A stretch of DNA of 63,879 nt, counting the filler. It is 18 parts of 18 records of this genome, joined end to end, with 100 filler letters (N's around TTAATTAATTAA, not from the genome) between each part and the next. Parts side by side here need not be neighbours in the genome. Positions count along the whole stretch, not along the records: positions 35,374 to 37,651 come from SRR11831580_851; 17 more parts are not named here. One strand, given 5' to 3'. Below are positions 36,421 through 37,650 of this stretch, one piece after another; position 1 is the first letter of the stretch, and each line of letters opens with the position of its first letter. Made by a program: the position numbers and the translations under genes. Under the pieces are notes generated by a model. It was given only the letters and a program-made list of their open reading frames with translations, had not been told where the DNA came from and did no database searches.

Positions 36421-37650
36421 TTACAGAACATCCGCGTCATTTGACAGCTCGTAGTCTTCCTCACGTGCTCCGACATCGGATCCGGCATCTTCGTACTCAC
36501 TGTCAGCGCTCTGGGTATGCTTTGTGTTGCCCTCGGTTTCGCAGTCCGTGAGCTCATCCCCGTCCTCCTCCCCCTCTTCCTCGTCGTGCTCACATGCATC
36601 CTCCTCCATGTGCGTGGTTGGGTCAGCTTCAGATGTGTGCTGTGCCACCCAGTCGTCGGGCTCGTCATAAGAGCGAGCATCCATGCTGCACACCCAGCGG
36701 TCGGGCAACTTAGGGCTCATCCCTCTCCGGTACGTCCCGAGCAATCGTTCTCTGTCACAGTCGAGGCACGTAACCCATTCTTGCACGCCATCAGTCTCAT
36801 CATTGGCGCACCGAGGGCACATGCAGCCATTGCCACAGCCGGTTTTGCACGGACAGTTATGCTCACACGCGTCCTTGCAGCGACATGTACTTGTTGTCCT
36901 CAAGCTGGCAGAGTTCGCAACCGGATCGTACAGAATGGGATCGTACTCGCCCTGTGCTCGCTCTTGCCACGCGTACTCTGTGATGGCGGTTGCAGTCGTA
37001 CAACGCTCGTCGATGGCTTCGTCCCACATCCGCATTGCAAACTCTACGCGCTTGAAGTGGCACCGCAACGCACTATCGTGCGGTACGTAGCGTTTGGGAT
37101 CCCCGTGACGTGACCACACGCGCACGCGGATGACGTGCAACCATGATCGCTGCCGTCCTCGCAGTTCAGCGGGACAACTTCGTTCGCGTACTCCTCACTG
37201 AACCCTGCACGGTTCGCCATGAACTGAACGCATCCGAACAGGCGAAGCTGCGTGTACTGTCTCAATGCGCCACGTGTCAGGTGTCACCGTCGCCAGAGGG
37301 CCGATAAACGACGAATATGATAAATATGTCTTTAGATACGTTGCAGGAGATACGCCTGCCGTGAAGGACACGTAGTCACACCCGGCCGCCGCATAGAGTA
37401 CCACAAACGAAGACAAACTGGGCCACTGCAACGCTCGAATTTGCTCTGACATAGCAGACACATTGACCAGCGTGTCCACAGATACAGAGAGCCCAGTGTC
37501 CACATACACCGTCTCGGCGAAGCGGTGAGCGTGTAACATCGCGACGACTGCAACATCGGTGTCATTGGCGCGTATGACTACGGATGCTACATCATAACTG
37601 TCCACGAGCACAGACGCGGCATGAGTGATACCCGTATCGGCTTCGGGATG
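36421..37650 (-). mobile_element. AcademX-like DNA transposon protein, C-terminal part (XPG/PIN nuclease, 9-Cys CXC-like finger, CW-type finger, acidic tail); interrupted at about 37150-37257
   Basis: Frame open from the contig edge: HPEADT, IRANDTDV, AGCDYVSF (XPG/FEN1-like acidic motifs and H3TH); then PHDSALRCHFKR...EYAW; CRCKDACEHNCPCKTGCGNGCMCPRCAN; WVTCLDC...LPDRWVCSM. Recognised by eye, not by search. Confidence 0.7.

Follow-up and report, generated by a model that had tools for sequence, protein, structure and literature searches.

A frameshifted nuclease-CXC open reading frame, probably the 3' part of an AcademX-like DNA transposon from a poorly sampled eukaryote

On the minus strand of a short eukaryotic contig, at positions 36421 to 37650, lies an open reading frame (ORF) in which part of a nuclease domain is followed by a CXC cysteine cluster and which closes with a TAA stop at 36421-36423. 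Positions are counted along the window, that is, the whole 63,879-base stretch of DNA that was analyzed, which consists of 18 short contigs (each 2.1 to 8.1 kb) joined by linkers of the form N44-TTAATTAATTAA-N44. The contig carrying the ORF (35374-37651; 2.3 kb) has its true end at 37651 and stops there inside the nuclease domain, and the frame stays open past the listed GTG at 37611 for another 13 codons, up to the contig edge (37650). This extension had been pointed out in an earlier note on this DNA, made from the letters alone, and it was found as described; the motifs HPEADT, NDTDV, AGCDYVSF, and P-HDSAL-RC-H-F-KR...MW...YAW named there are also all present, with both their order and their placement borne out. 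What that reading overlooked is a stop codon within the frame, a pair of frameshifts, and a CW-like finger near the C terminus, all of which are described below.

Frame A codons 1 to 126 (37273-37650, minus strand) hold what is left of a FEN1/EXO1-like (PIN-like 5' nuclease) domain, namely, its second half. Three acidic motifs are found in it on the minus strand: E-A-D (E3 and D5 of HPEADT) at 37636-37644, D-T-D (of NDTDV) at 37555-37563, and G-C-D-Y (of AGCDYVSF) at 37372-37383. In the A1 alignment of relatives, columns D295, D319, D321, and G383-C384-D385 are invariant or nearly so and the ORF retains all of them, as it does the P, H, and R columns of the helical region, so that every E-A-D, D-x-D, G-C-D, P, H, and R column that is (near-)invariant in the alignment is kept. 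Of the seven acidic residues expected, the ORF has five, those of E-x-D and D-x-D and the D of GCDY, as well as the DNA-binding H3TH stretch, and full-length relatives carry two more acidic motifs upstream, D-G-M and F-D...P-K...E-R-x-R-R. The combined acidic pattern of the relatives is, in our reading, probably that of the seven-carboxylate FEN1 family. The acidic motifs also follow the same order as in human EXO1 and FEN1 (PDB 3qea, 5uzv, 3q8k, and others); the difference is that the profile matches to these enzymes are weak (E of 0.0025 to 1) and that the ORF has no Pfam XPG match. When the family profiles were compared with all PDB sequences, EXO1 was matched with E values of 0.0025 and 0.0084 and FEN1 with E values of 0.25 to 1, these weak matches spanning 30 to 50 residues and, in EXO1, covering the GCDY/H3TH stretch (EXO1 residues 210 to 260). 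The A1 profile matched 31 PDB sequences at E up to 10, namely, 18 EXO1/FEN1 sequences, 11 pre-SET cysteine clusters, 1 LIN54, and 1 hypothetical protein. A Pfam scan of the three pieces of the ORF returned no family at E up to 1, XPG_N and XPG_I included, and when the 23 A1 members were scanned, 14 families came up at E up to 10, none of them XPG. Taken together, the matches are consistent with a FEN1/EXO1-like nuclease and lend weak support to that assignment.

The part that follows the nuclease, on the minus strand at 36886-37142 and again in frame A, appears to be a helical linker with W-L-x-x-I-R-x-x-x-W, then P-x-DSAL...MW, and then YAW. The helix motif itself, P-x-DSAL-x-x-H-x-KR...MW with YAW included, can be read directly at 37024-37083 (minus strand), and the corresponding A1 columns P484, H492, and R495 are invariant or nearly so and kept in the ORF. 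Next comes a nine-cysteine CXC cluster of the Tesmin/LIN54 type (36802-36885, minus strand), recognized both by direct reading and by the family profile. The spacing that had been proposed for it, C-x-C-x3-C-x3-C-x-C-x3-C-x3-C-x-C-x2-C-x-N, was recovered at exactly these positions, ending in C-A-N. In the alignment, the cysteines of the ORF line up with the CXC columns of the relatives, and one loop is three residues shorter than theirs. The LIN54 CXC domain (PDB 5fd3) was the first PDB match (E of 0.0015 with A1 and 6.1e-6 with A3). The Pfam family TCR (PF03638, Tesmin-type CXC) was matched by 10 of the 23 A1 members, and among 82 scanned relatives 13 matched the Tesmin-type CXC model at E up to 1e-3, 8 of these 13 at or above the cut-off; the window's own 42-residue CXC piece had no Pfam match at E up to 10. 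The nine-cysteine C-x-C pattern is shared with the Tesmin/TSO1-LIN54 CXC (PF03638; PDB 5fd3) and with the MSL2 CXC (PDB 2lua), whereas the single copy in the ORF differs from the tandem pair found in the Tesmin/TSO1-LIN54 type.

Behind the CXC cluster, a 35-residue stretch reading WVTCLDC...LPDRWVCSMD (36676-36780, minus strand) resembles a CW-type zinc finger below the Pfam threshold: zf-CW (PF07496) was matched over profile positions 1 to 33 of 47 with an E of 1.3e-4 and 22.3 bits, the cut-off being 27.5. The W-x2-C-x2-C...LPD-x-W-x-C spacing of CW-type fingers is present, but the C-terminal third, with the fourth cysteine, is unaligned and the tryptophan after the second cysteine is replaced; with the fourth cysteine and one tryptophan out of place, the stretch lies outside the zf-CW definition, and we call it CW-like. 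Its identity to the CW fingers of P0017, a bromodomain protein with three of them, is 42 to 46%, and it lacks a cysteine at the position of the fourth in P0017. CW-type fingers include those of ZCWPW1 and MORC3, which read histone H3 methylated at K4. A Pfam scan found no CW finger in any of the 96 related proteins described below, and the CW-like finger is the sole feature of the ORF not seen in its relatives; our literature search found no transposon with a CW finger. The reading frame ends with an acidic low-complexity tail and the TAA stop (36421-36675, minus strand; direct reading), and the tail has direct repeats in a GAG/GAA-rich stretch. The 3' flank, which extends to the other end of the contig (35374-36420), is without coding or RNA signal: the best of its five ORFs matched Pfam no better than E of 0.04, and Rfam gave no match to the ORF contig at E up to 0.1. 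Because the flank is without such signals, the end of an element could not be recognized in 35374-36420, where only short repeats were seen. Among the features of this flank is a 23-nt tandem repeat in two copies (35920-35967).

The frame had been described as nearly intron-free over its whole length. It is indeed intron-free, but it is not continuous. Frame A comprises 410 codons, counting an in-frame TGA at 37195-37197 (minus strand), and this TGA falls within a stretch of about 44 codons (approximately 37143-37274, minus strand) in which homology to the family is found only in the adjacent frame, frame B (...LRLFGCVQFMANRAGF...). A mid-region hidden Markov model (HMM) built from nine relatives gave 10.5 bits to frame B, -0.1 to frame A, and -2.2 to frame C, and none of 500 shuffled sequences reached the frame B score (top shuffle, 6.0 bits). 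In agreement with this, the A2 profile matched frame A with an overall E of 2.9e-28 in two collinear blocks, profile positions 1267-1371 (E of 6.8e-12) on the nuclease part and 1436-1559 (E of 2.5e-18) on the helical linker part, with the middle absent. The pattern indicates two compensating frameshifts about 130 nt apart, near 37275 and near 37145, both points having been set by hand from the frame comparison and being approximate. Since the TGA sits between the two shifts, the composite A-B-A reading is free of stops over about 410 codons. An intron in place of the frameshifts was rejected, as the stretch it would skip retains family homology in frame B, and the alignment has no gaps that point to an intron; TGA as a sense codon was rejected as well, as the TGA falls in the out-of-frame stretch. 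Neither shift lies in a long homopolymer run, and the window's bacterial contigs agree with their references without error, so that the indels may be real. The ORF is thus either a copy that died very recently or a gene that is intact but whose assembly has a local error at each shift.

The translated ORF was compared by phmmer with 1.84 billion representative proteins, which yielded 97 hits with an E of 1e-3 or less, all of which were scanned against Pfam (15 plus 82). The top hit, P0002, had an E of 4.3e-19 at 32% identity and was the only one below 1e-10, with none below 1e-30, from which it follows that there is no close relative in public data; identity to every relative was between 25 and 32%. 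The best hits are uncharacterized multidomain proteins and not repair enzymes. All but one of the 97 share nuclease, helix, or CXC parts with the ORF, the exception being P0017, an unrelated bromodomain/CW protein. Across the A1 to A3 alignments, the family has the layout previously suggested for this ORF, a FEN1/EXO1-like nuclease, then a P-x-x-AL-x-x-H-x-x-R helix region, and then a Tesmin-type CXC, in this order. In the seven hits of at least 1200 amino acids (1256 to 2252 amino acids), the module is always C-terminal, and in five of them DUF6589 lies upstream of it with a score above the cut-off; of the other two, P0060 matches DUF6589 with 22.1 bits, which is below the cut-off, and P0040 lacks it. 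Two further proteins, P0008 and P0037, have a partial DUF6589 match below the cut-off directly N-terminal to the module. Both long hits that bear organism names are from animals, Branchiostoma lanceolatum and Owenia fusiformis. Two of the long DUF6589-nuclease-CXC relatives are extended at the N terminus by another domain, P0036 by NADAR and P0092 (Owenia fusiformis) by an OTU cysteine protease. The A2 profile was built from nine proteins with DUF6589 or parts of it, and in the DUF6589 region its consensus has DNID, GDGKTYD, and LDExHEM, which we read as a putative D...D...E (DDE-like) triad; in a comparison of the A2 profile with PDB, the DUF6589 region matched no solved transposase. Most of the phmmer hits are short (110 to 950 amino acids) and without a transposase domain, so that stand-alone or domesticated forms may exist. 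Several of the shorter hits could be placed on the A2 profile: P0091 at 648-864 onward, P0039 at 316-595 and 1117-1523, and P0030 from 1000.

The ESM Atlas returned only unnamed or TCR-bearing eukaryotic clusters for P0005 and no usable match for the window's piece; a word-index protein search with the read-through ORF, covering proteins of 224 to 716 amino acids, had no hit at E up to 0.01; and neither NCBIfam nor PHROGs matched the ORF, P0005, or P0030. In the IMG/VR viral contigs, 18 matches to A2 patterns were found, none of which was confirmed. At the DNA level, searches of public genome contigs and metagenome contigs found nothing related to the ORF, an exact 30-base search of the public genome and metagenome contig collections gave 0 matches, and profile searches of the ORF contig found a single copy on it.

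A quick maximum likelihood tree of 23 A1 rows and 239 columns, with the out-of-frame stretch removed, grouped the ORF with P0005 (644 amino acids) and P0030 (726 amino acids) at an SH-aLRT of 95. Both of these proteins come from short contigs, and neither shows DUF6589. The trio shares one side of a split supported at 99 with a subgroup resembling the DUF6589-linked proteins; the branches of the tree are long, and the tree search was short. Scores of the ORF against two sub-HMMs, which differ in size, ranked a type 1 subgroup (127 bits) above the DUF6589-like subgroup (102 bits). As this ranking disagrees with the tree, the placement of the ORF is tentative.

The surroundings of the ORF in the window are mostly bacterial and of mixed origin. 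Fifteen of the 18 contigs are enterobacterial and three are eukaryotic. The enterobacterial contigs are 76 to 100% identical to an E. coli-like genome (G001), several at 100%, which indicates that at least two different Enterobacteriaceae are mixed in the window, one of them matching E. coli K-12 DH5alpha without a difference over the opening 8 kb. The contigs without a match to that genome are those at 29409-32469, 35374-37651 (the ORF contig), and 49584-52593, and the ORF contig had zero matches among 5,426 E. coli genomes. In trinucleotide make-up, the ORF contig correlates with the contig at 49584-52593, which carries an ISWI gene (r of 0.60), and with the rDNA contig at 29409-32469 (r of 0.51), compared with an r of 0.09 or less for all 15 enterobacterial contigs. 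The ORF and ISWI contigs thus resemble each other in trinucleotide make-up, and where we speak of a common organism, this is an assumption.

The ISWI chromatin-remodeller gene fragment (49584-52593, plus strand) is interrupted by at least nine canonical GT-AG introns, which are rich in TG repeats; three of the introns were read directly and the rest were deduced by exon-block reading. The contrast in intron density drawn previously between this gene and the ORF holds roughly, with the figures revised to at least 10 exon blocks and at least nine introns for an ISWI coding length of about 1.24 kb, against none over 1.23 kb in the ORF. The third-position GC content (GC3) is 0.63 in the ORF versus 0.80 in four ISWI exons. 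In protein searches, one ISWI exon had no match, and another drew 5876 matches with an E of 1e-10 or less, of which the best was 86% identical and none reached 90%; since identity peaks at 86%, the source organism is missing from the protein collection. The best named match of this exon was Thecamonas trahens (84%), followed by plants and by red and brown algae, and no animal or fungal name occurred among the best 120 of the 5876 matches. If the contigs belong together, these matches weakly favor a protist outside animals and fungi as the host. The ISWI contig ends in a (TG)n run.

We interpret the ORF as probably the 3' part of a gene whose large protein product belongs to a cut-and-paste DNA transposon of the Academ type (AcademX-like), from a eukaryote that is likely to be neither animal nor fungus. 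The AcademX lineage of the Academ superfamily is reportedly due to Kapitonov and Jurka (2010) and Kojima (2020). Its nuclease is called XPG, and a cysteine finger stands behind the nuclease; DUF6589 we take to be the Academ transposase. The ORF resembles AcademX in that a large protein ends C-terminally in a nuclease followed by a cysteine cluster and in that its homologues, those from Branchiostoma and Owenia among them, are fused behind the DDE-like DUF6589 region, from which we infer a transposon context and a transposase upstream of the contig break. It differs in being known from its last 410 codons alone, in having the additional CW-like finger, and in forming a small clade with P0005 and P0030. 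In passages of Kojima 2023 (PMC10045372), AcademX is described as encoding a nuclease and making target duplications of 3 to 4 bp, compared with 9 to 10 bp for AcademH, and the difference in duplication length is tied to the encoded nuclease or helicase. Our literature searches found no paper combining "Academ" with "XPG" and, for DUF6589, no functional statement. We count in favor of the AcademX-like interpretation the match to the A2 profile, the position in the tree on the side of the DUF6589-like subgroup, the alignment of P0030 to the A2 profile upstream of the nuclease, the lack of introns over 1.23 kb, and the GC3 below that of the ISWI exons, and against it that the contig shows no transposase, terminal repeat, target duplication, or second copy, that the nearest relatives, P0005 and P0030, are without DUF6589, that the type 1 sub-HMM outscores the DUF6589-like one, and that the pieces of the ORF have no Pfam match at E up to 1.

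The same observations have to be weighed under other explanations. A composite frame that is open over such a length could also come from a cellular gene under selection, and the ORF would then be a stand-alone, possibly domesticated, nuclease-CXC-CW gene of the host in which both frameshifts are assembly errors. Retention of every conserved family residue over the roughly 410 open codons fits such a gene, as do the prevalence of short proteins without a transposase domain among the 97 hits and the combination of a chromatin-reader-like finger with an acidic tail, which is typical of nuclear host proteins. It would, however, be free of introns while the ISWI gene of its genome has at least nine in a similar coding length, its GC3 is lower than that of the host gene, and P0091, P0039, and P0030 align upstream of the nuclease in the pattern expected of truncated element copies, as these short proteins may well be. 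The E. coli contigs also count against assembly errors, as their 100% identity to references means that wrong bases are rare, at least where coverage is high. We therefore regard a host gene as somewhat unlikely. An orthologue of a cellular repair nuclease (FEN1, XPG, EXO1, GEN1, or Asteroid) seems to us exceedingly improbable: although EXO1 and FEN1 are the only nucleases of solved structure that the family profiles match, XPG_N, XPG_I, and related Pfam families were found neither in the pieces of the ORF (E up to 1) nor in the 23 A1 members (E up to 10), the C-terminal helix motif and CXC cluster are specific to the family, and the best hits are the uncharacterized multidomain proteins mentioned above.

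The module could also have come from a mobile element other than Academ, such as another DDE superfamily, a Polinton-like element, or a giant-virus insertion. Nothing is visible upstream of the nuclease in the ORF to speak against such an origin, the link between DUF6589 and Academ is a putative one, and the varied accessory domains of the long relatives (NADAR, OTU) indicate that the module travels in composite proteins. On the other hand, DUF6589 is the shared upstream domain of every long relative that has a recognizable one, no relative was confirmed among the IMG/VR viral contigs with the A2 patterns, and no PHROG or NCBIfam family was matched; a non-Academ source thus appears quite unlikely. 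On the AcademX-like interpretation that we prefer, the ORF is a mobile-element fragment of a common type whose lineage has been poorly sampled.

In an intact element of this kind, the preserved part would comprise, in order, half of the putative two-metal 5' nuclease, the helical region, the CXC cluster, the CW-like finger, and the acidic tail, and the following roles can be proposed: (i) the upstream DDE transposase would cut and join the element ends; (ii) the structure-specific nuclease would trim 5' flaps or cut the second strand at the donor or target; (iii) the CXC cluster would bind DNA; and (iv) the CW finger would anchor the protein on the tails of histone H3. The finger hints in this way at chromatin-guided integration. 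A bolder version, which we consider unlikely, is that the ORF represents a deep-branching AcademX-like lineage in a protist outside animals and fungi that has added a histone-tail-reading CW finger behind the CXC cluster, its insertion sites being chosen or avoided by chromatin marks; if true, the combination of CW with an AcademX-like module would be one that is absent from all 96 related proteins found.

The earlier note based its claim of an extended host range on AcademX being described mostly from animals; the hosts of Academ, however, are not animals alone. Table 3 of a 2015 survey (PMC4438587) gives Academ in animals only, but sections of a 2017 survey (PMC5751038) already report it widely in fungi, at low copy number in most fungal taxa. 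A report of Academ in protists was not found in our literature search. If the AcademX-like reading holds, the ORF represents a further, strongly diverged branch of a transposon superfamily that has received little study, and it comes from an unsampled host, probably neither animal nor fungus; its practical value is small, as it is a single truncated and frameshifted piece on a 2.3-kb contig. The third eukaryotic contig of the window (29409-32469) carries a eukaryotic small-subunit (SSU) rRNA gene (30905-32469, plus strand) that covers model positions 1 to 1165 before the contig breaks off and is interrupted by a group I intron at 31508-31715 (plus strand), about 600 nt from the 5' end of the rRNA. 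The spacer 5' of this gene starts with (AC)15 at the contig edge.
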